Shown here: piece by piece, positions 3,318-33,022 of the stretch
Layout: the number at the start of each line of letters is the position of its first letter
Numbering within the stretch: the first letter of the stretch is position 1
Assembly (NCBI GenBank): GCA_049964835.1
Contig: JBMFWW010000001.1
Span: 131,589 to 195,588, forward strand
From: Candidatus Micrarchaeia archaeon
GTDB taxonomy: Archaea; Micrarchaeota; Micrarchaeia; Micrarchaeales; CABMGC01
Direction of reading: 5' to 3'
Length of the DNA stretch: 64,000 nucleotides
Made by a program: the position numbers and the translations under genes
The notes under the pieces: model-generated
What the model was told of the DNA's origin: nothing
The model's input: only the letters and a program-made list of their open reading frames with translations
The model's database searches: none

Positions 3318-3319
3318 AA

Positions 3320-3958: not shown

Positions 3959-4041
3959 TATTACATCCTAATAAAATATACATTACTATTTAACTCAAAA
4001 GGTTTATTAAGATTAATTTATATATTTCTAAAGAACTTAGT

Positions 4042-7000
4042 GTGGTCATAATGTTTGATTTTACAAAAAATGAGGAAAAGATTTTACTTTACTGGAAGGA
4101 AAAGGATATACCAAACAAAATACGATTGCATAATAAAGATAAAAAACCTTTTTACTTTCTTGATGGGCCTCCATATGCAAGTGGTAATCTACATCCTGGT
4201 CAGATATGGGTCAAATCAATAAAGGACGTATACGTAAGATTTAATAGGCTAAGAGGCTTTAATGTTCATGATAGAGCCGGATATGATGTTCATGGGCTTC
4301 CTATAGAAAATAAGGTTGAAAAAACATTAGGTATAACATCAAAGAAAGATATAGAGATTAAGGTTGGGGTTGAAAATTTCATTAAGTACTGCAAAGAGTA
4401 TGCCGATTCGTTAATACCAAAAATGACAAATGACTTTTTAAGATTTGGCAGTTCCCTCGATTTTGATAATCCATATCTTGCATACAAGAACGAGTTTATA
4501 GAAAATGCGTGGGATGTTCTTAAAAAAGCAGATGAAAAGGGTTATCTATACTCAGGAGTTAAACCTATGCTTTACTGCATACACTGCGGTACCGTTCTTG
4601 CTCAAGGTACACTTGAAATAGAGTACTCTGATGAAACTGACAATTCCATATTTGTAGGATTCAAAGTAAATAAAGAGTTATCAAAGCCAAAGATAGAGAT
4701 TTCAGAAAATACATACTTGTTAATATGGACCACTACTCCATGGACACTGCCCTCAAATGTTGCGGTAGCAGCAAATCCTAAAGAGTTATATGTTAAAGTA
4801 AAAGCAGGAGATAAATCATTAATATTCATAAAATCAAGATTCGATGCAGTATCTGATTTAATTGATGAAAATTTAATAATAGAAGCAGAGTTTTACGGAA
4901 GCGAGTTGAATGGCATATTCTATATAAATCCGCTTGAGGTTCAAATAAAAAAACAAGAAGAGTTAAGACCTATGCATAAGATTTTGCTTTCTGAAGAGCT
5001 TGTTTCGTCTACCGAAGGAAGCGGTCTTGTGCACATAGCTCCGGGCCACGGATCAGAGGATTACCAGCTAGGTTTGAAGAATGCATTACCAATATTCTCG
5101 CTAGTTAACTTAAATGGAGTATATACTGAAGAGGCTGGCACTTACGCAGGCTTAAAGGTTCCCGAAGAAGCAAACATAAAGATAATCGAAGTACTAAAAA
5201 GCAAAGGCTTGCTATTTGGTTCATTAAAAATAAGACATAGCTATCCTCACTGCTGGAGATGTAAGGAAAAGCTTCTCTTTCTAGTTACAAAGCAGTGGTT
5301 TTTCAATATACAGAAGATTAAAAGCAAGCTTATTAGCGAGTCTAGGAAGGTCAAATGGCATCCACAAGAAGCTAGCTCTTGGATGGAGGATATACTGTCT
5401 AATTCACCTGATTGGAGCATAGCAAGGCAAAGGTATTGGGGCATTCCGATACCTATATGGCAGTGCAATAGCTGTAATAGTTATACAATTATTGGTTCTA
5501 AAGCTGAACTTGAGTCGCTAGCTGTTAATGGGGATGTGGTAGCGTCAATGCAAAATCTACATAAACCATTCATAGATGAGATACTTATAAAATGCAGCAA
5601 GTGTAAAGCCAATATGTCAAGGGTACCTGACGTCTTTGATGTCTGGTATGACTCTGGTATAGCTTTCAAAGCAAGTCTATCCGAAGAAGAGTTTTCACGT
5701 TTATATCCTGCCGAATTTATTCTTGAAGGAAAGGATCAGCTTAGAGGATGGTTTTCCACATTATTAAAAATAAGCGTAATTTTATATGGAAAAGCACCAT
5801 TTAAAAATGTAATAATAGACGGAATGCTTCTTTCAGAAGATGGAAGAGAGATGCACAAAAGCCTTGGAAATTATATATCCTTAGAAGAGCTGCTAAAGTT
5901 CTCAAGTGCTGATGGTTATAGATTATGGTGTTCTAGCCATACACAATGGCTTGACCTTCAATTCAAAAAGGAGGAGATACGCGAGTCAGAAAAAAAGATA
6001 AGCACTATGTACAATATGTTCAATTTGTTAAATGAGTACTCATTGATGTTAAATTACATGCCCAAAAAGATAAAGAGGCCTTCACTAAAAAGTATTGACA
6101 AAAAGGAAGATTTATGGATATTATCCAGACTTAACTCTACAATCAAAAATGTTACCAACTCTTTAGAAAATTATGACATACAGGTCGCTAACTCTGAGTT
6201 ATCTAACTTTTTATTAAATGACTTAAGCAGATTCTATATAAAACTTGTAAAGAAAAAAATACTTTATTCAGACAAAAAAACTTCAAAGAGCTATGTCGAC
6301 TTGCTTAATTACATACTCTATCAGCTTAATTTAATAATATCTCCATTTATTCCATTTTCATCAGAGTATCTTTATCTAAATAATCAAGCTGCACTTTCAG
6401 ATAATAAGGAAAGTATATTCTTAAATACATGGCCATTGGCTTCTAAAAATTATATAAACTTAGATCTTGAAAAGGAGTTTGATATTGTTCTTGATGTTGT
6501 ATCTGGAATACTGAGTAGCAGAGAGCATTCTGGAGTAAAACTAAGGTGGCCATTATCTAAAGCTACAGTTGAGACCTTATCTGATGAGGTATCAAAAATC
6601 GTAAGCGTTTACTCAGAAATAATCTCAGATTATACAAATATTAAAGATATAATTGTAAAGAAAAAAGAGTCAATAAGTCTAGAAATTAAACCTAATTTTT
6701 CAAAGATAGGCCCTGAATTCAAAGATAAAAGCTCTGCAGTTTCAGAAGCCCTCAAAACCGCAGATCCCAAACTATTAAATGATGCAATAAATACTGGTGG
6801 CTACTACATATTACATACATCTAAAGGTCCGGTAAATATAACTAAAGATCATTTTATAACAATAGAAAATATAAAAAATGAAAACGGTGTTGAGTTCAAA
6901 TACGGTTTCATATATGTAGATACTCAAATAGATGCAAAGTTAAGAGAAGAGGCTCTTGTAAGAGAGTTTCAAAGAAGGGTTCAAATGCTTAGAAAGGAGC

Positions 7001-7203
7001 TTTTATTGAAAAAACCTGATAAAATAGAGCTCTATTACAACGCATCTTCCGAATTTGAAAAAATAATAAACAACTCATATAAAGAAATATCAGAGTATAT
7101 AAACGCTAAAAAGATACTTTCTAAATTATCAAATGAGGATATTCTTAAAAAAGAGTTTGAAATAGAAGATGAAAAGCTAACCCTTCAAATCAAGAAGGTG
7201 TAA
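4042..7203 (+). CDS. ileS: isoleucyl-tRNA synthetase
   Basis: 1053 aa. Class Ia architecture: PPYASGNLHPGQ (HIGH region), editing-domain TTPWTLPSN, zinc-site CWRC...CNSC, GREMHKSLGN (KMSKS region). GTG at 4042, first ATG at 4051. Confidence 0.95.
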   Translation: MVIMFDFTKNEEKILLYWKEKDIPNKIRLHNKDKKPFYFLDGPPYASGNLHPGQIWVKSIKDVYVRFNRLRGFNVHDRAGYDVHGLPIENKVEKTLGITSKKDIEIKVGVENFIKYCKEYADSLIPKMTNDFLRFGSSLDFDNPYLAYKNEFIENAWDVLKKADEKGYLYSGVKPMLYCIHCGTVLAQGTLEIEYSDETDNSIFVGFKVNKELSKPKIEISENTYLLIWTTTPWTLPSNVAVAANPKELYVKVKAGDKSLIFIKSRFDAVSDLIDENLIIEAEFYGSELNGIFYINPLEVQIKKQEELRPMHKILLSEELVSSTEGSGLVHIAPGHGSEDYQLGLKNALPIFSLVNLNGVYTEEAGTYAGLKVPEEANIKIIEVLKSKGLLFGSLKIRHSYPHCWRCKEKLLFLVTKQWFFNIQKIKSKLISESRKVKWHPQEASSWMEDILSNSPDWSIARQRYWGIPIPIWQCNSCNSYTIIGSKAELESLAVNGDVVASMQNLHKPFIDEILIKCSKCKANMSRVPDVFDVWYDSGIAFKASLSEEEFSRLYPAEFILEGKDQLRGWFSTLLKISVILYGKAPFKNVIIDGMLLSEDGREMHKSLGNYISLEELLKFSSADGYRLWCSSHTQWLDLQFKKEEIRESEKKISTMYNMFNLLNEYSLMLNYMPKKIKRPSLKSIDKKEDLWILSRLNSTIKNVTNSLENYDIQVANSELSNFLLNDLSRFYIKLVKKKILYSDKKTSKSYVDLLNYILYQLNLIISPFIPFSSEYLYLNNQAALSDNKESIFLNTWPLASKNYINLDLEKEFDIVLDVVSGILSSREHSGVKLRWPLSKATVETLSDEVSKIVSVYSEIISDYTNIKDIIVKKKESISLEIKPNFSKIGPEFKDKSSAVSEALKTADPKLLNDAINTGGYYILHTSKGPVNITKDHFITIENIKNENGVEFKYGFIYVDTQIDAKLREEALVREFQRRVQMLRKELLLKKPDKIELYYNASSEFEKIINNSYKEISEYINAKKILSKLSNEDILKKEFEIEDEKLTLQIKKV

Positions 7204-7249
7204 TAAATAGTAACTAAAAGTAAAGCAACAAAAATACATACCTTATTAT

Positions 7250-8254
7250 TTATCTTCTCCTGCTTTTTACTGTTGTACTATTTTTATGATGATGCATCTT
7301 ATGTCTAAAAATAACAAAGAATAAAACTACAATAATAACCGCAAATACTCCTACGTAAACCATTGCAGCATAATCTGGATTAAAATAAAGTATAGTGTTG
7401 TACTCTCCTTGATTTCCATTGCTATTGTTATTCGAATTAACAGCCGTAGAATTTTCCTTATTTATAGGGAAAAGTGTAAATGAGCCGGCCACACCGCTTA
7501 TTGTTTTTGTTTCTAAAGGCACTATCTGAGCCGGATTATAAAAAAATTCTCCATCAACACTTCCATTTTGTGCATCAATGTATATCCCCTTGTATAATTT
7601 AGTATAATAACTTGATGTGTTTATAATTGTTGGATAATAAGGTGTACTATTTACAACCTTCCAAACAAGATAATACGTAAGATTTCTTTCACTAGCATTG
7701 TAATTAGTGTTGTTATTTTTATTTGAATAAACACCAAAGATTCCATTTATCGTTCCATTAAATCCATACTCACTTGCTATTTTTTGGGCCTCACTTTGCG
7801 TTATATCTATAAAGTAAGGTTTAACTGGGCCTACATAAGAGATTACACTATTATTCTTGCCAAAAATTACCTCAATATTTAGCAATCTTAAAAGTTGAAT
7901 CGGCTCTGTACTTCCGCTATAAATAGGTTTTATTACAGAACCATTTATGAAAGGCACATTATAATTGAAAAGTATACTCGTATTTCCGTTGTATATGAAG
8001 TACTCGGAGTAGTTGATATATTTACTGTAATAGGACTCTCCAAAAAGCGTTTTTAAATAATTCTCCGATGCGTTAATATCTAATTTTGTTATATTTACAT
8101 TAACCGTTTTATTTCCAGAGCTTGTATTTGTTATATTAATCTGATGTAAATAACCTTCTGAAGGTGCGTAAAACTGTCCGCTATGCGAAAATGGCAGTAC
8201 AGAAAGCACCAATGCCACTATAGCAAAAGAATAAAATAATGAGTATTTTTTCAT
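7250..8254 (-). CDS. secreted, C-terminally anchored glycoprotein
   Basis: N-terminal signal-like helix, many N-x-S/T sequons, and a C-terminal TM (VYVGVFAVIIVVLFFVIF) plus a basic tail (RHKMHHHK...RRR). Confidence 0.6.
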   Translation of the reverse strand: MKKYSLFYSFAIVALVLSVLPFSHSGQFYAPSEGYLHQINITNTSSGNKTVNVNITKLDINASENYLKTLFGESYYSKYINYSEYFIYNGNTSILFNYNVPFINGSVIKPIYSGSTEPIQLLRLLNIEVIFGKNNSVISYVGPVKPYFIDITQSEAQKIASEYGFNGTINGIFGVYSNKNNNTNYNASERNLTYYLVWKVVNSTPYYPTIINTSSYYTKLYKGIYIDAQNGSVDGEFFYNPAQIVPLETKTISGVAGSFTLFPINKENSTAVNSNNNSNGNQGEYNTILYFNPDYAAMVYVGVFAVIIVVLFFVIFRHKMHHHKNSTTVKSRRR

Positions 8255-8420
8255 AGTAAATTTTATCCATTTAAGATATATAAATTTATGTATTGTTTTT
8301 TCTTTCCAAAGCTATATCTGTTAGCAATAAAAAATAAAAAAACGTTTAAATATTAAAAAATCACAACATATTGTTTAAGATTTAAATATTAAATTGAAAT
8401 TAAGTTAAATAGGTATTTAA

Positions 8421-22180: not shown

Positions 22181-22570
22181 ATGGGAGATAGAGAAAACAA
22201 GGGTATTTTCAAAACGGTTATGTATTGTATAAACCAGATTATACAAAAACAGCATGAGAAAAAACAGAATTGGAAACCTTCTTCAATTTATGAACCATTA
22301 AGGGTAATGAGTAGTATAGATGATAAAGGGGAAGTAATAGAAGCTGTTCTTGAAAAAGTGCTAAGATATACTTATTGGAGTAGCATGTCAGGTCTTGAAG
22401 ATAAAAAAGAAAATTATGTTACTGTGAGTTGCATAATAACAAATCAAAAAGACAATGTTAAACTAACAATAAAACAGGATAATATAAAAACAAAAGAATC
22501 TAAGGAACATGCAGAAAAGAGTTGGAGCACAGTTGGAGAGAAATTTAAAGAGATAGCAGAAAAAATATAA
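22181..22570 (+). CDS. hypothetical protein
   Basis: 129-aa ORF upstream of the aIF-2B-family gene. No recognisable motif. Confidence 0.4.
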   Translation: MGDRENKGIFKTVMYCINQIIQKQHEKKQNWKPSSIYEPLRVMSSIDDKGEVIEAVLEKVLRYTYWSSMSGLEDKKENYVTVSCIITNQKDNVKLTIKQDNIKTKESKEHAEKSWSTVGEKFKEIAEKI

Positions 22571-22589
22571 GTACCAAAAGGCATCATAG

Positions 22590-23690
22590 ATGGGAATATA
22601 TACAACTATAAATCCGATACGATGGGACGATTCAAAAGAAGAGATAGTATGGCTTGACAACTCACAGATTCCGTGGCATGAAGTTTATAATTCTACAAAA
22701 GACCTTTCAAGATTGATAAGTGCAATAAACTCACTTGAGATAAGAGGGGCTCCAATTCTAGGTGAAGCTGGAGCATATGGAGTTGCTATGATAGCAAATA
22801 ATTCTTCAAACTCCAAATCAGAACTCCTTAAAAATGTAGAATTATTAGGAAATCAGCTTGCTCAGGCAAGGCCTACAGCAGTAAATTTAAGCTGGGGCGT
22901 CAAACAAGTACAAGAAGCTATTAAAAAGAATGCTGCTTTTGGGTTATCTTGTGAAGAGATAAAGGAGAAGGCAATAGCACTAGCTAAGGATATACAAAAA
23001 ACAAACATTCAAGCTACTTACGAGATAGGTAAACATGGAGCTAAGCTAATCCACGATGGCGATGTTCTTGTAACTGTGTGCAATGCAGGTACATTAGCTT
23101 GCGACGGCTTAGGAACATCAACAGCCCCAATGCGCGTTGCAGCATCTAAAGGCGTAAAGTTTAAGGTACTGACCACATATACTGCACCACTATATCAGGG
23201 CGCCAGATTAACAGCTTGGGAGCTTCATAAAGACAATATACCTGTACAAGTAATAACTGATAATATGGCTGCTCATTTAATGCGTGAAGAGAAGGCAACA
23301 GCAGTTTGGGCAGGAGCAGATAGAATAATTGGAAATAATACTAAGGAAAGCGGAGCAGTTTATAATAAGATAGGAACTTTTAGTCTTTCATTAATCGCAA
23401 AGGAACTTAAAATTAAGATGTATGTTGCTGCTCCTACATCGACTTTAGATCCTATCAGTACAATAAAAAGTGTAAAAATCGAACAAAGAAATCCTGAAGA
23501 AGTTTTTGTGTTACTTGGAGGCACAAAAGTAGTTCCCAAAGGTGTTGATGTTCTAAATCCAGCATTTGATATGACTCCTCCAAAGTACGTTTCTGCTATA
23601 ATCACAGAACTTGGTATTGCAAAGAGGCCGTATAATATATCCTTACCAACTTTATTATCAAATAAAAAGAGCATGATATCATTAAAATAA
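22590..23690 (+). CDS. aIF-2B alpha/beta/delta family isomerase (methylthioribose-1-phosphate or ribose-1,5-bisphosphate isomerase-like)
   Basis: 366 aa. N-terminal W.D....WLDNSQIP and EIRGAPILGEAGAYG motifs of the MtnA/aIF-2BI family. Confidence 0.85.
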   Translation: MGIYTTINPIRWDDSKEEIVWLDNSQIPWHEVYNSTKDLSRLISAINSLEIRGAPILGEAGAYGVAMIANNSSNSKSELLKNVELLGNQLAQARPTAVNLSWGVKQVQEAIKKNAAFGLSCEEIKEKAIALAKDIQKTNIQATYEIGKHGAKLIHDGDVLVTVCNAGTLACDGLGTSTAPMRVAASKGVKFKVLTTYTAPLYQGARLTAWELHKDNIPVQVITDNMAAHLMREEKATAVWAGADRIIGNNTKESGAVYNKIGTFSLSLIAKELKIKMYVAAPTSTLDPISTIKSVKIEQRNPEEVFVLLGGTKVVPKGVDVLNPAFDMTPPKYVSAIITELGIAKRPYNISLPTLLSNKKSMISLK

Positions 23691-23774
23691 TAACCTAAAT
23701 ACTAAAGCTCGTATAATTGAAGAAAGTAAAGAAAGGTATTTAATTTATCTAGTCGTATATAACTTGGTATTTTT

Positions 23775-24287
23775 ATGAAATCTACATATCTGATTGGTGT
23801 TACAATAATCATTATACTTATAATAATTGCTGCAGTATACTTTCTTTATTTGGTTCCTTCTCAAACAGTTCAGAAAGGGGATATTGTTTCCGTATATTAT
23901 ACTGGAAGTTTCACTAATGGAACCATATTTAATTCTAATGTAGGCCAACAACCGTTTAACTTTACCGTAGGTTCAAATGAAACCATAGTCGGATTTGACA
24001 ATGCTGTACTTGGAATGTCTTTAAATGAAAATAAAACCGTTACCCTACCTCCTAGTGAAGCTTATGGTTATGAAAATCCAAGTCTTATTGTTTCAGTTCC
24101 TTTATCTGATTTTGGCAATAAAACTATAAGTGTGGGCTCTGTAATAACAGAGAGATCAACAACAGGTCAGCAAAATAATGGAGTTGTAATATCTGTAAAT
24201 AAAACATACGCAAAAATCAACTTTAATTCACCACTTGCAGGACAAACATTAGTCTTTACAATACGTGTTGTAGGAATAAAAAGTTAG
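23775..24287 (+). CDS. membrane-anchored FKBP-type peptidyl-prolyl isomerase
   Basis: N-terminal TM helix, then GDIVSVYYTGSFTNGTIF.S......F.VG....I.GFD.AVLGM, the FKBP core. Confidence 0.8.
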   Translation: MKSTYLIGVTIIIILIIIAAVYFLYLVPSQTVQKGDIVSVYYTGSFTNGTIFNSNVGQQPFNFTVGSNETIVGFDNAVLGMSLNENKTVTLPPSEAYGYENPSLIVSVPLSDFGNKTISVGSVITERSTTGQQNNGVVISVNKTYAKINFNSPLAGQTLVFTIRVVGIKS

Positions 24288-24362
24288 AGCGTTAATAGAT
24301 AAACTTTAAAAATAAAAAAAGAAAAAATAAGAATAAAAAAGGAGTTGTTTTAAATTAAATAT

Positions 24363-24503
24363 TCACTTTCCACCAATCTTGAACATTTTTGTTCCACATG
24401 AAGAACATGTTCCTGTCATTGCCTTCTTACCATTCTTCATGGTAACTTCCTTTGCTCCTTTCATTTCACTTTTTGCTTTGCATTTAACACAATATGCTTC
24501 CAT
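24363..24503 (-). CDS. small zinc-ribbon protein (DUF5679-like), 46 aa
   Basis: My own translation: MEAYCVKCKAKSEMKGAKEVTMKNGKKAMTGTCSSCGTKMFKIGGK, with two CxxC pairs. It lies antisense to the listed ORF 24379..24573, which looks spurious. Confidence 0.6.
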   Translation of the reverse strand: MEAYCVKCKAKSEMKGAKEVTMKNGKKAMTGTCSSCGTKMFKIGGK

Positions 24504-24577
24504 ATTATCTCCATATAGTATAAGAACAGCATATTATAAAAATACTATACTTTTAAACTCAAAAAAACATTAAATAT

Positions 24578-25081
24578 TTAAATATCCCTTTTTGTCCTAA
24601 TAATATAATCAATAACTTCATTTTTTCTATCATCTAATAAAAATTCAGCCTTTATACTCTCTCCAGAAAGTACTCTTTTAAGCCAGTATTTATCATCTGA
24701 CCACATTTCATGAAAAGGGATAGCATTTCTATGAAACCATTTTGGCTTCATTTCTTCAGATTCCTTTGGAGTACCTTCCCATCTATGTATTAAAAATAGG
24801 TCAACACTTCCTGCACTTTTTGCATCATTAGGGTTATAAAATACTATATTCCCCTTATTTTCAAGTTCAGTAACTTTTACACTTATCTCCTCGAAAGTTT
24901 CTCTAATCATAGCATCTTCAGATCTTTCACTAGGTTCGAGCTTTCCCCCTATTCCATTTAATTTTCCAACTCCATATCCCCTTTTTTTTATAGCTAAAAG
25001 TACGTTATCCTCTTTAACTAAAAAACCTAAACAGTACTCCTTGTTTATCTTTGTTTTGTTTCTGTATTCAACAACATTCAT
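24578..25081 (-). CDS. NUDIX hydrolase
   Basis: Nudix box GGKLEPSERSEDAMIRETFEEISV (G-x5-E-x7-REUxEExGU). Confidence 0.85.
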   Translation of the reverse strand: MNVVEYRNKTKINKEYCLGFLVKEDNVLLAIKKRGYGVGKLNGIGGKLEPSERSEDAMIRETFEEISVKVTELENKGNIVFYNPNDAKSAGSVDLFLIHRWEGTPKESEEMKPKWFHRNAIPFHEMWSDDKYWLKRVLSGESIKAEFLLDDRKNEVIDYIIRTKRDI

Positions 25082-25215
25082 TTAAATCCCACGGCTAAAA
25101 TATATTTGTATTTTAGATATAAATGCATTATGATTGTATGTTGCTATTGCCTCTAATGGTTCTCATTGCAGTTTTCATACTGATATCTATAAGGACTATA
25201 TTTAACAAAGTAGGC

Positions 25216-25251
25216 GTAAACCCACATGCTTTAGCGGTGGGGGGATGTCAC
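25216..25251 (+). repeat. solo copy of the IS605-type terminal hairpin
   Basis: GTAAACCCACATGCTTTAGCGGTGGGGGGATGTCAC. It has the same CCCAC..TTTA..GTGGG hairpin and the same GGATGTCAC tail as 9426-9456. AAATCCCAC at 25084 also matches the left end at 8938. Confidence 0.5.
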
Positions 25252-25263
25252 TAGAATTATAAA

Positions 25264-25446
25264 TTACTCAACCGTCATTTCGTGCTCTTCAGCTTCAAAG
25301 TTTACTTTATGGTGTGTTCCATCACAAAACGGCTTTTTCTTAGAGTGTCCACATCTGCACAAAGCAAATTTTACAGCACCATCCACAGTTACAAGATTCG
25401 GTCCATTCTTAGCAGATTTTATTTTTATTTCCATATTTTCTACCAA
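25264..25446 (-). CDS. CDGSH iron-sulfur domain protein
   Basis: 60 aa, with CRCGHSKKKPFCDGTH matching the C-x-C-x2-S-x8-C-D-G-[ST]-H signature. Confidence 0.8.
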   Translation of the reverse strand: MVENMEIKIKSAKNGPNLVTVDGAVKFALCRCGHSKKKPFCDGTHHKVNFEAEEHEMTVE

Positions 25447-25471
25447 TTATATATAACACAATAACTTATTA

Positions 25472-25861
25472 TTACTTAATTAAATTAAATATCAATGGTA
25501 TTACAAATATTGCAAAGAACAAATCAAGTAAAACTATTGTCGTTATAAATACATACAATCTGTTTTTTTGATTTCCAAAGTAATATACAGAGTAAAGAAC
25601 TCTTATTACTGGTGTAGCTATTAGAACCATCAAGCCTAAAACTATGTATGAGAGGCCATCAAGAGAAAATAGGCCATAAAATATATTGTCTATGTTTATA
25701 AAACTTGTATTGATTTTAGACGTATGTGATGCTATTTGATTTAGAGAATAACCTAGCCCGCCGTTTTTTGCAAACAATAATGCCATTCCAATTAATATTA
25801 GCAGTATACTTGCAACTGAGCCAATTCTTAATATATACCCTATGCTTTTATTAGCGTCCAT
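25472..25861 (-). CDS. DUF1634-like membrane protein
   Basis: 129 aa, three TM helices, immediately downstream of and abutting the TauE/SafE gene. This pairing is known. Confidence 0.55.
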   Translation of the reverse strand: MDANKSIGYILRIGSVASILLILIGMALLFAKNGGLGYSLNQIASHTSKINTSFINIDNIFYGLFSLDGLSYIVLGLMVLIATPVIRVLYSVYYFGNQKNRLYVFITTIVLLDLFFAIFVIPLIFNLIK

Positions 25862-26719
25862 TTATATAACACCAATTCCTCTTAAAATCATCTGTACTCC
25901 TAAAATCAATATGACAATAACAAATAGCTCTCTAACAAAATTATTCTTTTCTTTATTTAGAAACTTAGAGCCAAAATAACTGCCAGTAAGTACACCTATT
26001 GCTGCAGCTCCTGCTATAAAAGGCTGCATGTATCCAAACTCCCAATATATCGCAGTTCCAGCAGCTGCAGTTACACCTATCATAAAATCACTTGTAGCAG
26101 CACTAACTTTTGGAGGCAGTTTCATCATATCATCTAAACTTAACACTTTAAGTGCACCCGATCCAACTCCAAGCAGTCCAGAGATTAAACCTGCAAATAA
26201 CATTATTAATTCTGAGTACCACCATCTTACACCATAATACTTTATTCTTTTTTTGAGCTGCTCGTCATAATAGGAGCCGTTCAATTGGAAAAGTTTGGTA
26301 GTTTTATCCGGTTTTATATTGATACTTTTCTTTTTTCTCATTAATTTTTTCATTGATGGATATATGGAGAAGATAAGTACTACTCCAAAAAGTATGAATA
26401 TTACTGAAAGATCCTTTGCCTTGTAAATTTGCGTTGCTATTAATACCCCAACTATGGCTCCTATTGTCGTTCCAACCTCTAAAGACATACCTATCTTAAT
26501 ATTAGTTATTTTATCTTTAACATAGGCACTAGCCGCACCGCTAGATGTAGCTATTGACGCTATAAGACTTGCTCCAGCAGCGTAGTATATAGGTATTCCA
26601 AAACCAAGAACCAGTAGTGGTGTTAAGATTACTGCCCCTCCAAGGCCCGTAAGTGAACCAATAAGCCCGGCAGCGATTCCTCCTATAATTATTAGCAAAA
26701 AGAATAATATTGGTAGCAT
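25862..26719 (-). CDS. TauE/SafE (DUF81) family anion exporter
   Basis: 285 aa, polytopic, Gly-rich repeated halves (GLIGSLTGLGGAV ... GLLGVGSGAL). Confidence 0.8.
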   Translation of the reverse strand: MLPILFFLLIIIGGIAAGLIGSLTGLGGAVILTPLLVLGFGIPIYYAAGASLIASIATSSGAASAYVKDKITNIKIGMSLEVGTTIGAIVGVLIATQIYKAKDLSVIFILFGVVLIFSIYPSMKKLMRKKKSINIKPDKTTKLFQLNGSYYDEQLKKRIKYYGVRWWYSELIMLFAGLISGLLGVGSGALKVLSLDDMMKLPPKVSAATSDFMIGVTAAAGTAIYWEFGYMQPFIAGAAAIGVLTGSYFGSKFLNKEKNNFVRELFVIVILILGVQMILRGIGVI

Positions 26720-26758
26720 TACGATCTAACTTTAATATGCTGATAATTAATAAATAAA

Positions 26759-27070
26759 CTACCTATTTTTATTTTCTTCAAGTATCTCCCCAAAACTTCT
26801 ACAAAAATACTCTGTAGTTTTATGTACCTCCTTTATTCCTATGCTAGTGAGTTTATAAATAATTATTTTATTTGTTTTTTTCCCTATTATTAATCCATTA
26901 TCACTAAGTTCTTTAAGTGCAGGATAAATTGTACTCGGCTTTGGCTTTTCTCCTCTTCTTTTACCTATTTCTTCAGCTATCTCATCCCCATACATTTCTT
27001 TTTTTGAGAGTAACCAAAGTATCTGGAAGGATAGCAATCCTTTCATGTTGCACCCTTTCGAAGTTTTCAT
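26759..27070 (-). CDS. PadR-family transcriptional regulator
   Basis: Winged-helix pattern ILWLLSKKEMYGDEIAEEI....G.KPKPSTIYPALKELSDNGLI. Confidence 0.75.
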   Translation of the reverse strand: MKTSKGCNMKGLLSFQILWLLSKKEMYGDEIAEEIGKRRGEKPKPSTIYPALKELSDNGLIIGKKTNKIIIYKLTSIGIKEVHKTTEYFCRSFGEILEENKNR

Positions 27071-27195
27071 AAATACATCTTATATTATTTTATTAAATTT
27101 ACTTTATACTTATTAAAGTTTTGTTTATCTTATTATATATTTGATATCCTATAAATATAATAACTAATATATGATATCATATATAAGGTGTGAAT

Positions 27196-27276
27196 ATGAA
27201 TGGAAATGGATGCTGTTGTTACGGCACAGATTTGAATGGAACGAGAAGCTTCCTTACAAAAGAAGGGCTTTGCTAA
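27196..27276 (+). pseudogene. 5' part of a small DUF5320-like gene, interrupted by the IS-derived element
   Basis: MNGNGCCCYGTDLNGTRSFLTKE, then 3 element-derived codons and a stop. AAGGTG lies 6 nt upstream of the ATG. The frame continues at 29661 once the element is removed. Confidence 0.65.
27256..27265. repeat. target-site duplication, left copy (ACAAAAGAAG)
   Basis: Identical 10-mer at 29651-29660, directly abutting the opposite inverted-repeat terminus. Confidence 0.7.
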
Positions 27277-27330
27277 ATAATTATCATTTTTGCATGAATA
27301 TTTTAGCACACTCTACTATTTATTAGCAGA
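27267..27330. repeat. 64-bp direct repeat, copy 1 (IS end including the transposase stop codon)
   Basis: Matches 29567-29630 at 63 of 64 positions (the mismatch is at 27301/29601). The offset is exactly 2300 bp. Confidence 0.9.
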
Positions 27331-27700
27331 CCAGGTTTTATCTTCAATTCATACATAGAATTTATTAGGACGGTTATGTTGTAAGCTATAAGTTTACACA
27401 ATACTTCGTTGGTCTGCGATACAAATTTCTTGCTTTTTAGGCAGTCACCAAACTTCACCTTTATTGCAAAGAATGTGGTTTCTACATTGCTTCTTGTATG
27501 GTAGTGGTTGGTATTTATTACCTCTTTAAAGGGATTTACTATTACGTAAAATCCATGAAGATAAAATTAACGTCTACAAAATAAGGACTCACATCTAAAA
27601 GCAGATAGATGAACTGGCGTAGATTGTACTATGACATTTTTACAATTTACTGCTTTGTATATCATCGGCGAATTTGCCAATTTGCAGGCATCACGCTCAG
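27303..27700 (-). pseudogene. DDE transposase remnant (C-terminal about 87 aa in frame, upstream part frameshifted, N-terminal half absent)
   Basis: FYLHGFYVIVNPFKEVINTNHYHTRSNVETTFFAIKVKFGDCLKSKKFVSQTNEVLCKLIAYNITVLINSMYELKIKPGLLINSRVC*. It contains Y-x2-R-x3-E-x6-K (YHTRSNVETTFFAIK). Confidence 0.7.
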
Positions 27701-27771
27701 GGCTTATTCAAATTACTATCAAATGATGCTAAGGAAAATTTTGCAGTAAAGGCCTTTCTAATTTTTATATT

Positions 27772-28209
27772 TTATATGCTTAGAAAGAACCATTTTTCTG
27801 GGGAGTTAATAAAGCCTATTTCTTTGTAAAATCTTTGTACAGTATACATATGTGAGCCAACAGCTACATAAACACTGCGAATATTTCGTTGCTTAAGAAT
27901 GGAAATTACCTTGTTTATTAATTGTGTACCAACCTTTCTCTTCCTATACTTTTCGCTGACAAATAGCTCTTCTATATATGTCACTCCCTTATTTTTAATA
28001 TGTTCATAATACACGGCCCAGACATAGCCTATTAATTTTTTGCCTGAAAGAGCAACAAAAACTATCTGGCCCGATTTATGCATATGTAATGAGAGATTTG
28101 ACTTATAAAATTCCTGTTCTTCGTCGCCTTTGTATAGCTCCCGAAAGTAGTGCGTTATCTCCTTCAAGTCTTTGTTTCTAGCCTTTCTTATAACGATTTG
28201 CTCCATCAT
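27772..28209 (-). CDS. GNAT-family N-acetyltransferase
   Basis: 145 aa. Typical beta4-alpha3 acetyl-CoA segment IEELFVSEKYRKRKVGTQLINKV. Starts 5 nt after the rSAM stop. Confidence 0.8.
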   Translation of the reverse strand: MMEQIVIRKARNKDLKEITHYFRELYKGDEEQEFYKSNLSLHMHKSGQIVFVALSGKKLIGYVWAVYYEHIKNKGVTYIEELFVSEKYRKRKVGTQLINKVISILKQRNIRSVYVAVGSHMYTVQRFYKEIGFINSPEKWFFLSI

Positions 28210-28214
28210 AAAAC

Positions 28215-29387
28215 CTAAGTTTCTAATTGATTTTTAATCTTATTATAGATATGTTCGTATATTTTGTAATTGGAGCATTCAGCAGAGTTAGTAGTTTTAG
28301 AATTAAGCAGGTACCTATCATAAGCACACCCGCCTTTACATTTATCATACCATTTACAACTTAGGCATACTTTCAGACTTTCTATCTGCTTCTGTAATAA
28401 TCTTCTATAGCCCTCTGTTGCGAATATCCCGCTTATAGACTCTATATTGTTTATATTAGCAATTTCGCTTTCACTTACAATTGTGTTACCTGTTCTTGGG
28501 AATTTATCACATGGGTATATGCTGCCATTTGGATATAAAGTAAATGTTGTATTTGCACAGATTCCTTGACCTATCTGGCAGATTTTAGAAGAATGCCCCA
28601 AAATTGTTCGCAAAATATCTTCAAATAGTAATATATGAATACTTGGATCATCTTTTTCAAACCAGATATCAAACAGTTCATTAACAAATTTAACATAGTT
28701 TTCAGTGGAATAAAGATAAGAAGTTAATTGTTCCTCAGTGTTCGAAAAAACAGGTTCTTGTGGTAGAAAATCAAACGTTTTTAGGTTGTTATTAACAAAA
28801 AAGTCAAATAACCTTTTCGGACCTATGCGAAAGGTATCATTGGTAATTACGGCGAGAGCACCAAATGGGATCTCGTATTTTTTAAGTAAATTTATGCCTC
28901 TAATTGTTTGTTCATATGAATCTCCGACTATTGCTGCTCTTTGTTTATTTTGTATTTCTTTTGGACCGTCTATACTTACGCCTACTTGAATTTTTTCCTC
29001 TTTAAAAAACTTCACCAATTCTTCATTAATCAGTGTCGCATTTGTTTGTATGCTGTTCTTAATTTTTATTTTTCTCTGTGAGAATAATTTTTTTTGAACA
29101 TTTACGATCTTTTTAAAAAAAGATAAACTCATCAATAAAGGCTCTCCACCGTGCCATATGAAATCAACACTACCTAAGTCGTCGTATTCCGATACTTTAG
29201 TGAAGAGTTCATTGATCAGTGAAAAATCCATATATTCAGTCGTAATCAGACCTCGAACTAGCGGACCTGAAACTCCACAGTATGAGCACCTTAAATTACA
29301 GTTGTTAGTTAATTTGACAATTATAGCTATGCCTAGATTACGATTATTAAAAAGAGCTTTATTAGACTCCAAGTAACTCTCATTCAA
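28215..29387 (-). CDS. radical SAM enzyme with full SPASM domain (anSME/peptide-maturase type)
   Basis: CNLRCSYC (Cx3Cx2C), GGEPLL, and the 7-Cys SPASM signature CANTTFTLYPNGSIYPC ... CLSCKWYDKCKGGC ... C. Confidence 0.85.
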   Translation of the reverse strand: MNESYLESNKALFNNRNLGIAIIVKLTNNCNLRCSYCGVSGPLVRGLITTEYMDFSLINELFTKVSEYDDLGSVDFIWHGGEPLLMSLSFFKKIVNVQKKLFSQRKIKIKNSIQTNATLINEELVKFFKEEKIQVGVSIDGPKEIQNKQRAAIVGDSYEQTIRGINLLKKYEIPFGALAVITNDTFRIGPKRLFDFFVNNNLKTFDFLPQEPVFSNTEEQLTSYLYSTENYVKFVNELFDIWFEKDDPSIHILLFEDILRTILGHSSKICQIGQGICANTTFTLYPNGSIYPCDKFPRTGNTIVSESEIANINNIESISGIFATEGYRRLLQKQIESLKVCLSCKWYDKCKGGCAYDRYLLNSKTTNSAECSNYKIYEHIYNKIKNQLET

Positions 29388-29399
29388 ATAGACCTACCT

Positions 29400-29513
29400 T
29401 TAGAGTGATTTGCTATGAAGATTATGCCCCCTCCATATATTTAATGAATCGCTGTTTTCTTCACGTAGAAGAGACATTAATATTTTACTTTTATTTGTTT
29501 TTTCTTTTTCCAT
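29400..29513 (-). CDS. candidate precursor peptide (37 aa)
   Basis: My own translation: MEKEKTNKSKILMSLLREENSDSLNIWRGHNLHSKSL. AAGGTGG lies 5 nt upstream of the ATG and TTTAAATA about 35 nt upstream. The stop is 12 nt before the rSAM start. Confidence 0.4.
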   Translation of the reverse strand: MEKEKTNKSKILMSLLREENSDSLNIWRGHNLHSKSL

Positions 29514-29566
29514 GGACCCACCTTATATTAATTTGGATAAAATCTATTTAAATCTTTTGGTTAATA

Positions 29567-29650
29567 GCTTTGCTAAATAATTATCATTTTTGCATGAATA
29601 CTTTAGCACACTCTACTATTTATTAGCAGAATGAGGTTTATTAGCAAAGC
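29567..29650. repeat. 84-bp MITE-like unit (64-bp repeat copy 2 plus 20-bp opposite IS end)
   Basis: Begins GCTTTGCTAA and ends TTAGCAAAGC. The first 64 bp duplicate 27267-27330. Confidence 0.7.
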
Positions 29651-29660
29651 ACAAAAGAAG

Positions 29661-29755
29661 AAAAGCTAGAAATACTGAAAGATTATAAGGATAAATTGGA
29701 AAAAGAAGCGAAAGGAGTATCTGAGAAAATAAAAGAACTACAACAAAATAACTAA
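29661..29755 (+). pseudogene. 3' part of the interrupted DUF5320-like gene
   Basis: In frame with 27196-27265 after element removal: ...EKLEILKDYKDKLEKEAKGVSEKIKELQQNN*. Confidence 0.6.
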
Positions 29756-29802
29756 ACTAATTTTTTCTTTTTTATTTTATTATTTTTATAACCTTTTATG
29801 AT

Positions 29803-30234
29803 TTACTCAATTTTTAATATTTTTTTGATAATTGAGCTTTTATACTTATCTTTTTTGTAGGGTTTAATTCTAACTATTTCTGACCTGATATTATTATTTT
29901 TAAGCCAGCGTCTTACTTCATCTTCATTTACATTTTGATCATATCCAAAAGCAAGAACTGCTGGCTTATACTTTTTTATTATCTTATATCTATCTTCTGG
30001 CGTTTTCAATTTTTTACCTATTATTGCATAATCAACTACTTTAAGTGCTTTTAGCATTTTTAATCTATCCCTCTCATTAAATAATGGGGTCTTTCCTTTA
30101 ATCACCTTAATACTTTCATCTCTTGAGATAACAACTAATAATTTATCTCCATGTTTGCGTGCCGATTCTAAATAACTTAAATGACCTGGGTGTAGTAAAT
30201 CAAAAGAACCGAAGGTAAGAACGAGTTTGCTCAT
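29803..30234 (-). CDS. ribL: cytidylyltransferase-fold FAD synthase (RibL-like)
   Basis: 143 aa. TFGSFDLLHPGHLSYLE (the (H/T)xGH nucleotidyltransferase motif) and ISRDESIK..KGK.P, as in archaeal RibL. Confidence 0.7.
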   Translation of the reverse strand: MSKLVLTFGSFDLLHPGHLSYLESARKHGDKLLVVISRDESIKVIKGKTPLFNERDRLKMLKALKVVDYAIIGKKLKTPEDRYKIIKKYKPAVLAFGYDQNVNEDEVRRWLKNNNIRSEIVRIKPYKKDKYKSSIIKKILKIE

Positions 30235-30443
30235 ATACGCATCAAATTAACATAGATAATAAAATAATAATAGAATTGACCATTTACAAAGTAATATAGC
30301 ATTTTGCAAATAAAAACTATTCGCAAAGCAAATCACTAATAAAACAGTTAGAACAATAGGTTATATAAATATTATCTTACCAAATAATAGTGCTAAATGG
30401 CTTGTTTTCCCGCAAGCACTGCAATTTTGCAGGAGGGATTTAA

Positions 30444-31076
30444 ATGGCATTGAATATAGAAGAATTTACAAAGTTTATTGCCGAGAATAAAGGCAAAAGG
30501 AAGTTTAAGCAAACTGTAGAGTTAGCTGTAAATTTCAAGGGTATTGACTTCACAAAGCAAAACAACAGACTTAACCTTGATATACTTCTTCCAAATGGTA
30601 ATGGTAGATCTATAAAGCTAGCAGTTTTTGCATCCGATAAAACATTATTGGAAGATGCATCTAAGAACAACATTGATGTAATAGATCCTAAAGAATTAGA
30701 TGCCATTGGAAAGGATCCGAAGAGACTTAATTCATTATTAGAATATGATTTATTTGCACAACCAAGTCTTATGCCTTCAATAGCAAAATCATTAGGTCAA
30801 TTTTTAGGTCCAAGGAATAAGATGCCAAGGCCCCTACTTCCTGGAATAACAATATCCTCTATAAAAAATGATTCTACTAAAAGAGTTAACATAAAAAGTA
30901 AAGGAAAGTACTTGCCAACTGTGCATTCGGTAGTTGGTACTGAAGATATGGATCCGGTTAAACTCTACCAAAATATAAATGAGGTATTGGATAATATAAA
31001 GAAAAAAATAGGCAGCAACAATGTCAGGTCAGCTTATGTTAAGCTTACAATGTCGAAGCCTATAAAAATAATGTGA
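30444..31076 (+). CDS. rpl1: 50S ribosomal protein L1
   Basis: 210 aa with the L1 pattern (F.QTVEL..N....D.....R; LGP.NKMP.P). GGAGGG lies upstream. Confidence 0.9.
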   Translation: MALNIEEFTKFIAENKGKRKFKQTVELAVNFKGIDFTKQNNRLNLDILLPNGNGRSIKLAVFASDKTLLEDASKNNIDVIDPKELDAIGKDPKRLNSLLEYDLFAQPSLMPSIAKSLGQFLGPRNKMPRPLLPGITISSIKNDSTKRVNIKSKGKYLPTVHSVVGTEDMDPVKLYQNINEVLDNIKKKIGSNNVRSAYVKLTMSKPIKIM

Positions 31077-31080
31077 GTTT

Positions 31081-31920
31081 ATGGTTATGATAAAATCCCA
31101 AAAAATAGAATTCGTAAATAAGCTTAAAAAAGAGATAAAAGAGCACAAAACTGTAGGGGTAATGTCAATTGAAAGAATGCCAGACAGATTATTTCAGAAA
31201 ATAAGAAATGAAGCAAAAGAGAAAAAGATTAAGACAATAGTTTCTAGGAAAAATCTTCTATTAAAGATACTGGATCAAGAAAATTTTAAGACTCTTGAGC
31301 CTTTTGTAACTGGCAATGTAGCAGTATTAATGACAAATGACTCTCCGTTTGAGCTTTATAGCCTTGTAAGTTCTAATAAGATAAGGCTTATAGCAAAACC
31401 AAATCAGATAGCAGACTCTGATATAGTTATAGAATCTGGAGAGACTTCATTGCAGCCAGGACAGGCAGTAACAGAACTCAAAACTGCAGGAATAGATGTT
31501 CAGATACAAAAAGGAAAGGTAACTATAGGCAAATCAAAAACTCTTGTTAAAAAAGGGGAAAAGATATCGTTGCAAGTATCAAAAGCATTAAAGCTTTTAG
31601 ATATACTTCCTTTTGAAGCAAAAGGAAATGTAGCGGCAATAGTAGAAGGAAAGCTTCTTTATACTCCGGAAATATTAAAAGTAAATAAAGAATTCATAAG
31701 TATTGAAATAGGAAAAATATTTAATTCAGCATATCTTGTCAGTTTGGAACTAGGAATAGTAACCGAATACAATGTAAAGGAGTTCATAAGGCGTGCATTT
31801 GTATCTGCATTGTCAGTGGGTACACAAGCTCAGATTCCAGAAGGAGAAGTAATACCAAAACTTATGGGCATTGCATTTTCAGCAGCTCAAAATTTAGACG
31901 GCATGGTAAAAAAAGAGTAA
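31081..31920 (+). CDS. rpl10: 50S ribosomal protein L10 (P0)
   Basis: 279 aa, positioned between L1 and L12. N-terminal K.E.V..L...I......V.....P pattern. Confidence 0.9.
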   Translation: MVMIKSQKIEFVNKLKKEIKEHKTVGVMSIERMPDRLFQKIRNEAKEKKIKTIVSRKNLLLKILDQENFKTLEPFVTGNVAVLMTNDSPFELYSLVSSNKIRLIAKPNQIADSDIVIESGETSLQPGQAVTELKTAGIDVQIQKGKVTIGKSKTLVKKGEKISLQVSKALKLLDILPFEAKGNVAAIVEGKLLYTPEILKVNKEFISIEIGKIFNSAYLVSLELGIVTEYNVKEFIRRAFVSALSVGTQAQIPEGEVIPKLMGIAFSAAQNLDGMVKKE

Positions 31921-31947
31921 TTAATTTGTTATATTAAAGGTGAAAAT

Positions 31948-32250
31948 ATGGAATACATATATGCAGCTCTCTTGCTTGATTCTGCAGGAAAAGAGATAAG
32001 CGAGTCAAGTCTCGAAAGTGTAGTAAAAGCAGCAGGCATAACCCCAAATGAAGCTATGGCTAAAGCGGTTGTAAGCTCATTGAAAGGCATAAACATAAAA
32101 GATGTTATAAAGAATGCGCAATCAATGCAAGTAGCAGCTCCGGCAGCATCAGCAGCTCCAGCGGGAAAAGCCGAAGAAAAGAAAGCTGAAAAAGAAGAGA
32201 AGGTAGGAGAGGAACAAGCAGCTGGCGGATTGGCAAGTCTTTTTGGATGA
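31948..32250 (+). CDS. rpl12: 50S ribosomal protein L12 (P1 stalk protein)
   Basis: MEYIYAALLL N-terminus, Ala/Glu/Lys hinge, and the conserved C-terminus GGLASLFG. Confidence 0.9.
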   Translation: MEYIYAALLLDSAGKEISESSLESVVKAAGITPNEAMAKAVVSSLKGINIKDVIKNAQSMQVAAPAASAAPAGKAEEKKAEKEEKVGEEQAAGGLASLFG

Positions 32251-32373
32251 GCCGATGCGTCAAATGTTGTTAAAACTTTAATAATAGTTAGCATAGCTTT
32301 TATTCGTTAAAGGGCGAAGCTAACATATTATTTATAAAGTTTTAACTCAATGCTTTAACTAATTGGTGTAATT

Positions 32374-32730
32374 ATGGAAGTATATGTAGAAAAACAGAAA
32401 TGTACTGGTTGTGCTCACTGTTTCGATGTTTGTCCTGTGGCTGTATTTGCAATGAAGAATAGAAATGATCCTGAGGTAAATTCAGATGTGGCTCCAGATT
32501 CAGACAAATGGAAAGGAACACACGATCAAAAAGTTTATGATAAATGGGCAAATGTCCAAGATGGACACAAACATTTTGCTGAGAACTTTGAAGGAGGAAG
32601 CGGAGGAATATCTGTAGGCATAAATGGGCCTTCTTGTATACTTTGTCAGGCATGCCTTGTAGAGTGTGAAGGGGAATGCATAGTAATAAAGGATGACTCT
32701 AATAATATCTACAAATCTATATACAAATAA
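32374..32730 (+). CDS. 2x[4Fe-4S]-type ferredoxin with a long central insertion
   Basis: CTGCAHCFDVCP and CILCQACLVEC motifs separated by about 65 aa instead of about 20. Confidence 0.75.
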   Translation: MEVYVEKQKCTGCAHCFDVCPVAVFAMKNRNDPEVNSDVAPDSDKWKGTHDQKVYDKWANVQDGHKHFAENFEGGSGGISVGINGPSCILCQACLVECEGECIVIKDDSNNIYKSIYK

Positions 32731-32749
32731 AATGTAAATATTTGATTTA

Positions 32750-33022
32750 ATGGATAAGATACGTTGCGCCCATATTCTAGTCGAAAAACATTCAACCGCG
32801 CTCGAGATACAAGAGAAATTAAAGAAAGGAGAACCATTCTCAAAACTTGCTGAGCAGTACTCACTTGATAGATCAAGAAAGCGTGGAGGAGATCTTGGTT
32901 TCTTTGGAAGAGGAGTAATGGTAAAACCTTTTGAAGAAGCAGCGTTCAAGTTAAAGGTTGGAGAAGTTTCAGATATAGTAAAGACTCAGTTTGGATATCA
33001 TCTAATAAAAAGAACGGAGTAA
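32750..33022 (+). CDS. parvulin-type peptidyl-prolyl isomerase
   Basis: 90 aa. CAHILV...GGDLGFF.RG.MV..FE.AAF.L..GEVS..V.T.FGYHLI is the PpiC/PinA core. Confidence 0.85.

Follow-up and report, generated by a model that had tools for sequence, protein, structure and literature searches.

A transposase-deficient element with insertion-sequence termini carries a predicted peptide-modification cassette and interrupts a small conserved gene in a Micrarchaeia archaeon

The DNA analyzed here, referred to as the window, is a stretch of 64,000 nucleotides from a Candidatus Micrarchaeia archaeon (assembly GCA_049964835.1, contig JBMFWW010000001.1, positions 131,589 to 195,588 of the forward strand). 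Between two copies of the 10-mer ACAAAAGAAG it contains an element of 2,385 bp (27266-29650), which interrupts a 54-codon gene located beside the gene of a PadR-family regulator. The element is bounded by inverted termini of an insertion sequence (IS) and encloses, from left to right, the last codons of a transposase gene, a non-coding stretch, three co-oriented genes predicted to make and modify a small peptide, and a short unit resembling a miniature transposable element with inverted repeats (MITE). An earlier account of the same DNA, prepared from the letters and their open reading frames (ORFs) and called the sequence-only reading below, had pointed out the insertion and proposed an origin for it. 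The features of the locus are listed by window position; L and P numbers denote loci and proteins outside the window.

26759-27070, minus strand: PadR-family regulator gene (Pfam PF03551, E 1.2e-10), divergent from the small gene
27196-27276, plus strand: 5' fragment of the small gene, 23 native codons followed by G-L-C-stop read from the end of the element
27256-27265: left copy of the target-site duplication, ACAAAAGAAG (9-bp alternative, 27257-27265)
27266-27280, plus strand: left terminal inverted repeat, GGCTTTGCTAAATAA, the IS 3' end in transposase orientation, matched exactly by the ends of L002 and L012, both IS copies
27266-27506, minus strand: IS 3' stub of 241 bp, made up of the terminal repeat, a short untranslated stretch and the last 67 transposase codons
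27267-27341, plus strand: copy 1 of a 75-nt direct repeat, 92 % identical to copy 2
27303-27506, minus strand: transposase remnant with its stop codon, corresponding to residues 274-340 in a reconstruction of 340 aa, keeping the YHTRSNVE...K block and lacking both catalytic D regions
27507-27650: non-coding DNA of about 145 nt without similarity to IS copies, in which the similarity to locus L003 is lost; no Rfam match
27651-27771, minus strand: 3' flank of the cassette, common to a second cassette copy at L003
27772-28209, minus strand: GNAT N-acetyltransferase gene, 145 aa (Pfam PF00583, E 5.9e-18)
28215-29387, minus strand: gene of a putative radical-SAM/SPASM peptide maturase, 390 aa, with a TTG start after AAAGGTAGG and a CX3CX2C motif
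29400-29513, minus strand: predicted precursor peptide gene, 37 aa, MEKEKTNKSKILMSLLREENSDSLNIWRGHNLHSKSL, with the core WRGHNLHSKSL
29514-29565, minus strand: cassette upstream region, in which an A/T-rich TATA-like stretch (TTTAAATA) and GGTGG before the ATG were recognized from sequence alone
29566-29650, plus strand: MITE-like unit of 84-85 bp, copy 2 of the direct repeat (29567-29641) fused to an inverted terminus, with both IS ends and no coding sequence
29637-29650, minus strand: right terminal inverted repeat, GCTTTGCTAATAAA, with the terminal G missing, or replaced if the duplication is 9 bp long
29651-29660: right copy of the target-site duplication, ACAAAAGAAG
29661-29755, plus strand: 3' fragment of the small gene, EKLEILKDYKDKLEKEAKGVSEKIKELQQNN up to the stop; removal of the element and of one duplication copy brings it in frame with 27196-27265

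From ATG 27196 onward the ORF reads MNGNGCCCYGTDLNGTRSFLTKE, then runs into the foreign residues G-L-C and stops at TAA 27274-27276. The element begins with GGCTTTGCTAAATAA (27266-27280) and finishes with TTTATTAGCAAAGC (29637-29650); the two are inverted copies of each other, one 1-nt indel apart, the outermost G of the left end being absent at the right end. The description of both junctions in the sequence-only reading, including the stop three codons into the element, the identical 10-mers at 27256-27265 and 29651-29660 and the inverted terminus ending at 29650, was therefore exact. Only one further copy of the 10-mer is present in the window, and the probability that two fixed positions carry the same 10-mer is about 3e-6 at this base composition. 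The bases outside the two copies are unlike (T/C before, G/A after), so that the repeat is exactly 10 nt long and does not form part of a longer local repeat, an explanation raised in the earlier account and rejected on these grounds. While the left end shows the full GGC terminus, at the right end an A follows GC, and the length of the duplication may for this reason be counted as either 9 or 10 bp: it would be 10 bp if the last base of the right terminus is missing, and 9 bp if the A at 29651 is a mismatched terminal base of the element. By GC content the element was not distinguishable from its flanks, and the base composition is uniform across the junctions.

Joining position 27265 to 29661 gives a protein of 54 aa, as had been proposed from an in silico deletion. 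A search of 5.8 billion proteins with the joined sequence returned 63 uninterrupted homologues of 39-77 aa that span the junction, the best with up to 72 % identity at 100 % query cover, mainly from archaeal, Diapherotrites and Nanoarchaeota bins. In an alignment of 16 sequences the residues straddling the junction (R17, F19, and TKEE at 21-24) were invariant. The restored reading frame thus corresponds to a conserved gene. Its proposed membership in the DUF5320 type of small proteins found little agreement with the Pfam model (PF17253), which scored the joined protein at 13.8 bits against a gathering threshold of 27 (E 0.14); one of the 16 family members reached E 0.0058, and one homologue carries this name at NCBI.

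The contig of the closest homologue (L001) is syntenic with window positions 22467-32826 at 72-81 % nucleotide identity. The gene order is the same, with FKBP, DUF5679, NUDIX, CDGSH, DUF1634 and TauE genes, then the PadR gene, the small gene and a cytidylyltransferase gene, and then the genes of ribosomal proteins L1, L10 and L12. At the insertion point L001 reads CTTCCTAACAAAAGAAGAAAAGATAGA: it has a single 10-mer, no element and an uninterrupted small gene, and is an empty-site allele of the locus. Both the uninterrupted orthologue beside PadR and the empty site, which the earlier account had suggested looking for, are thus present in one relative, and the divergent arrangement of the PadR gene and the small gene that it described is confirmed in the window. 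The insertion is real, and the observation is strongly backed by these comparative data.

The left part of the element is derived from a transposase gene. The closest relative of the remnant is P0064 (97 % identity), encoded on a 1,095-bp contig (L002). L002 is an IS copy in which the transposase is split by a frameshift into ORFs of 213 and 130 aa, and which ends ...TTATTTAGCAAAGCC, followed by unrelated DNA. We fused the two ORFs by hand into a 340-aa transposase and compared it with the 64 kb by sensitive tblastn. A single match was obtained, covering residues 274-340 at 27506-27306 (97 %, E 6e-38). From this it follows that only the last 67 residues of the 87-aa ORF are transposase, that both D regions are gone and that no other transposase copy lies in the window; the 21 residues preceding the match in the ORF are unrelated. 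The sequence-only reading had recognized the C-terminal end of a DDE transposase and its Y...K block correctly, and had counted all 87 residues as transposase. Its frameshifted upstream part was not found anywhere in the window by blastn or tblastn, and instead of the N-terminal half about 80 % of the protein is missing, full-length relatives being 400-445 aa long. A compound transposon of two IS copies was rejected, as a second transposase sequence is absent from the window.

At the nucleotide level (blastn), window positions 27265-27506 are 98.8 % identical to L002 832-1073 and 97.1 % identical to L012, and the transposase similarity to L002 ends sharply at 27506/7. L012, from a Candidatus Micrarchaeia genome, carries the same insertion as L002, truncated at the 5' side and adjoining a tRNA gene. 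One IS insertion beside a tRNA gene is thereby represented in two independent assemblies (L002 1035-1095 and L012 4200-4340), with the IS of L012 cut to its last ~375 bp.

The family of the parent IS had been given as IS4-like on the basis of the 10-bp duplication. Among the NCBIfam models, the IS5-family model NF033579 matched the remnant with E 5.7e-11, compared to E 0.087 for the IS4-family model NF033592. The 340-aa reconstruction matched NF033579 with E 4e-33, the match covering 2-288 of the 289 model positions, at 115 bits where the curated cut-off is 140, and the relatives P0210 and P0212 reached 133 bits; the IS4 model was far weaker (E 7.8e-8). By tblastn the reconstruction was also 23 % identical, over 91-93 % of its length, to an IS5-family element abundant on Klebsiella plasmids. 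On plasmid CP110606 (L020) this element, which we take to be IS903, has the ends GGCTTTGTTGAATAAATC and GATTTATTCAACAAAGCC and is flanked by a 9-bp duplication, GAACTCCAG. The left end of the window element and the ends of L002, L012 and L029 read GGCTTTGCTAA, that of L020 reads GGCTTTGTTGAATAAATC, and both begin with GGCTTTG; the archaeal IS therefore has IS903-like termini. Judged by these model scores and termini, the element is assigned to the IS5 family with IS903-like ends and not to an IS4-like group. The argument from a 10-bp duplication to IS4 was mistaken, because the termini match those of IS903 (GGCTTTGTTGAATAAATC), where the duplication is 9 bp.

Full-length relatives of the transposase came from a library of 1.84 billion proteins; P0213, one of the three that were scanned, has an N-terminal SWIM zinc finger, and the pseudogenized copy at L021 appears by eye to have a similar N-terminal motif. 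The loci were approached via P0064, P0069, P0070 and P0073. The surplus of 3' fragments among them is what a query with a C-terminal fragment is expected to give, and should not be over-interpreted. No intact transposase gene was found in the window or in the scanned collections, and the viral contigs gave no match with either the end DNA pattern or the transposase. In two of the loci, additional ORFs follow the transposase stop codon and precede the terminal repeat: L029 (150-2118) has two, of 48 and 380 aa, and L021 (4000-5520) has one of 62 aa on the opposite strand, the transposase genes themselves being truncated or pseudogenized. These additional ORFs suggest that the IS family tolerates passenger DNA, even though the terminal repeat of L029 might belong to a separate MITE instead. 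At a further locus (L016, 36-2907), a gene for a FokI-like restriction endonuclease lies between a DDE_Tnp_1_5 fragment and a 5'-truncated copy of the IS family.

The right part of the element has a different composition. Positions 27267-27341 and 29567-29641 form a direct repeat of 75 nt with 92 % identity, the initial 64 nt of which contain a single mismatch; the longest stretches of perfect identity between the copies measure 34 and 29 nt. In its final 84 bp the element thus repeats the IS 3' terminus, oriented as at the left end and fused to the inverted TTTATTAGCAAAGC. Short, non-coding and with inverted termini from a parent IS, this unit has the anatomy of a MITE. A free-standing relative of 101 bp with the same two termini and 88 % identity occurs between unrelated flanks in another Micrarchaeia genome (L014, 5638-5740), and L009 holds a degenerate solo end. 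The form of the right terminus, GCTTTGCTAATAAA(C/T)C, is also the 3' terminus of the distant relatives L021 and L029, and the right end of L014 is of the same type. Searching the GTDB genome contigs and JGI metagenome contigs with a 20-nt end pattern returned 11 loci, among which only L009, L012 and L014 were real and the others chance 20-mers. Neither these contigs, searched by the end pattern, nor the window contained a second copy of the 2,385-bp composite.

Between the stub and the MITE-like unit lies the cargo. Read in transposase orientation, the MITE is followed by the upstream region, the 37-aa ORF, the radical-SAM gene, the GNAT gene, the ~145 nt of non-coding DNA and the IS stub. The GNAT, radical-SAM/SPASM and 37-aa ORFs are intact and co-oriented, in agreement with the sequence-only reading, which had further assumed that the cassette took the place of the missing transposase half. 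This arrangement was not observed; the stub is followed by the ~145 nt, the cargo and then a complete MITE-like unit. A scan against Rfam and for promoters and terminators gave nothing further.

The putative maturase matched the Pfam models Radical_SAM (PF04055, E 1.9e-19) and SPASM (PF13186, E 2.8e-5) and contains the motif CNLRCSYC. Its matches to the NCBIfam models of anaerobic sulfatase maturase (anSME), DynA, DarW and DarE ranged from E 1e-58 to 1e-69, all under the curated cut-offs, and the match to the anSME structure 4K37 in PDB had E 2e-47. The GNAT protein matched HaaN, an acetyltransferase of a cyclophane-forming peptide made by ribosomes and modified after translation (RiPP), weakly (E 0.0011). 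The four closest full-length radical-SAM homologues that could be placed (57-58 %; L004, L017, L018 and L019) are each preceded by a small precursor ORF (L004 7836-7967; L017 ~4797-4960; L018 ~1007-1140; L019 3-134), always directly upstream of the anSME/DynA-like radical-SAM/SPASM gene. The leader and core of these four precursors follow the pattern KSKIL.ALLRD...L(T/I)WRGH(N/S)LHSKS(Y/F), and the form KSKIL.(A/S)LLR...WRGH[NS]LHSKS[YFL] is kept in five loci including the window. On this conservation we regard the 37-aa ORF as a real gene, and the three-gene cassette is apparently functional. The third gene of the four other loci encodes, instead of a GNAT protein, a PPDK_N/PEP-utilizers protein of 641-659 aa, which in L019 is cut by the contig end.

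The precursor core holds the triplets W-R-G, H-N-L and H-S-K. Cyclophane cross-links of the His-x-Lys and Trp-x-x type are installed by enzymes of the HtkB, WprB and DarE types (PMC11499958, PMC11851443, PMC9055067). Taken together with these enzymes, the core triplets suggest that the product of the cargo is likely a cross-linked, perhaps N-acetylated, small peptide.

A partial copy of the cassette was found at L003 (GCA_023270015.1, JAGDXZ010000008.1, 10023-11203), 91.4 % identical by blastn over window positions 27679-28858, with the alignment reaching to about 27650. It comprises the 3' 55 % of the radical-SAM gene, which is 5'-truncated, the GNAT gene and a further 93 bp downstream, and lies downstream of a tRNA-synthetase gene with a scaffold gap (a run of N) just upstream. 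No IS termini were found near it. As this locus is unrelated to the window, the cassette occurs in different genomic contexts. At L004 (GCA_021792775.1; 1674-2987 and 6745-12163) the peptide, radical-SAM and PEP-utilizer genes stand between two tyrosine-integrase genes, in surroundings with toxin-antitoxin pairs and an IS605 OrfB/TnpB gene, so that a member of the cassette family is again seen in a mobile context.

An explanation of the locus has to account for an insertion into a conserved 54-codon gene by PadR, with inverted IS termini, a 9-10-bp duplication and an empty site in a relative. We consider it probable that 27266-29650 is a non-autonomous composite of an archaeal IS5-family IS with IS903-like ends, which moved as one unit. 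The outermost termini at 27266 and 29650 would then be the two ends of a single transposable unit; an IS transposase would have recognized both of them and moved the whole 2,385 bp in one cut-and-paste event, and the same event would have duplicated the 9-10 bp of target and inactivated the small gene. The transposase may have come from an intact copy elsewhere, acting in trans, or from a gene of the element's own that has since been lost. At present the element would be able to move only with transposase supplied in trans by an intact copy, and its mobilization in this way is plausible.

Several observations weigh against this proposal. Movement as a unit is deduced from a single insertion, as no second composite copy was found. 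Homologous integration into a resident MITE would likewise produce 75-nt direct repeats on either side of the cargo. The transposase of IS903 acts mainly in cis, which would argue against an efficient supply in trans. The right terminus (TGCTTTGC or GCTTTGC) is without the terminal G of the IS copies (GGCTTTGC), and the free-standing MITE at L014 has no recognizable target duplication at its flanks; no other insertion whose duplication could be read was found. The 5' terminus of an intact IS was not reached, every copy obtained being truncated, pseudogenized or cut by a contig end (L016, L029, L021-L028, L012); the contig of L002 breaks 13 nt before the start codon, so that its 5' end is missing too. 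As the intact 5' end was never recovered, the right terminus is known only from its inverted similarity and from the copy at L014.

The main alternative is that the composite was assembled in place and never transposed, which we regard as possible, though clearly less probable than movement as a unit. A MITE, or a full IS, would have entered the small gene first and made the duplication, and the IS stub with the cargo would have come later by homologous recombination across 64-75 nt. This could have happened by Campbell-type integration of a circular or extrachromosomal DNA of ~2.3 kb with one IS 3' end, or by gene conversion from another locus. The 75-nt direct repeat brackets the cargo with a start-to-start distance of 2,300 bp, precisely as expected if a resident MITE and a circle with the same sequence had undergone a single crossover; the MITE is known as an independent element from L014, and the failure to find a second composite copy also fits. 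However, assembly in place needs an unobserved donor in which the IS stub was already joined to the cassette, and a stretch of 64 nt that includes a mismatch is short for recombination to act on. No allele of the insertion site with only the MITE was seen either, the only relative found having a fully empty site.

The origin proposed in the sequence-only reading is improbable in its literal form. It holds that a single IS4-like IS had the N-terminal half of its transposase swapped for cargo, leaving a frameshifted remnant and the 10-bp duplication usual for IS4. In its favor, remnant and cargo are indeed co-oriented inside inverted termini with a duplication. Against it stand the scores of the IS5 and IS4 models and the IS903-like termini given above, the absence of the frameshifted upstream transposase sequence, and the second full copy of the 3'-terminal 64-75 nt at the right end, which a simple internal replacement does not explain. 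We consider it very unlikely that the structure is an assembly artefact, in which a cassette from elsewhere was threaded into the small gene via the repeated IS end: the window is probably from a metagenome-assembled genome, the IS copy of L002 is a short contig of 1,095 bp cut at its 5' end, and a repeat does flank the cargo, but the exact runs of 34 and 29 nt shared by the repeat copies are below the usual final k-mers, the outer junctions on either side are precise and keep in register with the target duplication, and the base composition does not change across them.

In ISfinder terms, the mobile insertion cassette (MIC) or the MITE-capped composite is the closest counterpart of the element. 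MICs such as MIC231 of Bacillus cereus are defined in ISfinder/ISsaga (PMC3129680; PMC5444012). Like them, the window element encloses passenger genes, without a transposase gene, within IS-type inverted termini and a target duplication, and it would show the same dependence on the cognate transposase of another copy. It differs from MICs in its unequal ends, a 241-bp IS stub with 67 transposase codons at one side and a whole MITE at the other, in its host, a DPANN-type archaeon, in its peptide-modification cargo, and in being known from a single copy. In MITE-bounded composites (integron mobilization units, MITE-flanked class 1 integrons and the blaPER-1 case, papers on which are cited in PMC5444012), a miniature IS derivative likewise supplies a terminus for moving neighboring genes. 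Such composites have a MITE at each end, whereas the window element has one MITE and one truncated IS. Transporter IS and compound transposons also carry accessory genes within IS ends, and L029 and L021 similarly hold extra ORFs; the window element, however, possesses neither the intact transposase gene of a transporter IS nor the two full IS copies of a compound transposon.

With IS903 (CP110606, L020) the archaeal IS shares an IS5-family transposase of the DDE_Tnp_1 type and the terminus GGCTTTG(Y)T(R)AATAA, and the 9-bp duplication of IS903 is compatible with CAAAAGAAG at the window element. In contrast to IS903, the archaeal transposase shows only 23 % identity to it, the archaeal relatives are 400-445 aa long, with the SWIM domain in P0213, and the duplication in the window is read as 10 bp if the right terminal base is not assigned to the element. 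The cargo resembles the DynA, DarE, HaaB/HaaN and HtkB RiPP systems (PMC9055067, PMC11499958), in which a short precursor with an aromatic-rich C-terminal core is combined with an anSME-like radical-SAM/SPASM enzyme and a GNAT protein. Compared to these systems, the window maturase misses all curated NCBIfam cut-offs, and its closest full-length homologues (58 %) are uncharacterized.

The element belongs to a type that is already known. It is a clear case, but it introduces no new principle and leaves the understanding of transposition unchanged. The points of interest are the host lineage, the pair of filled and empty sites, and the conserved, uncharacterized peptide cassette. The locus illustrates the travel of accessory genes in reduced DPANN genomes by a clean case from nature, with a tiny conserved target beside PadR, and it shows an archaeal IS5-family element sharing its terminal sequence with the enterobacterial IS903. 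The precursor and radical-SAM/SPASM family recurs in mobile contexts of several uncultivated archaea, namely the window element, the integrase-flanked island of L004 and the decayed copy at L003. On a wider and rather tentative view, which we would not rate as likely, DPANN (Micrarchaeia-like) archaea host an IS903-like family whose members habitually lose the transposase and give rise to MITE-capped cassettes, and these shuttle an undescribed set of cyclophane-type RiPPs with the core WRGHNLHSKS[LYF] between genomes. If true, ultra-small symbiotic archaea would harbor a peptide natural-product cluster borne by a transposon, a situation of which the searches made here found no case.

Comparison of the window with L001 also revealed differences apart from the IS-derived element. 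L001 contains a CitMHS transporter gene and a gene pair (119 and 380 aa) at 2827-3981 and 6814-8369, which are absent from window positions 24600-25260 and 30240-30440; the neighborhood has therefore gained or lost several small blocks besides the element.

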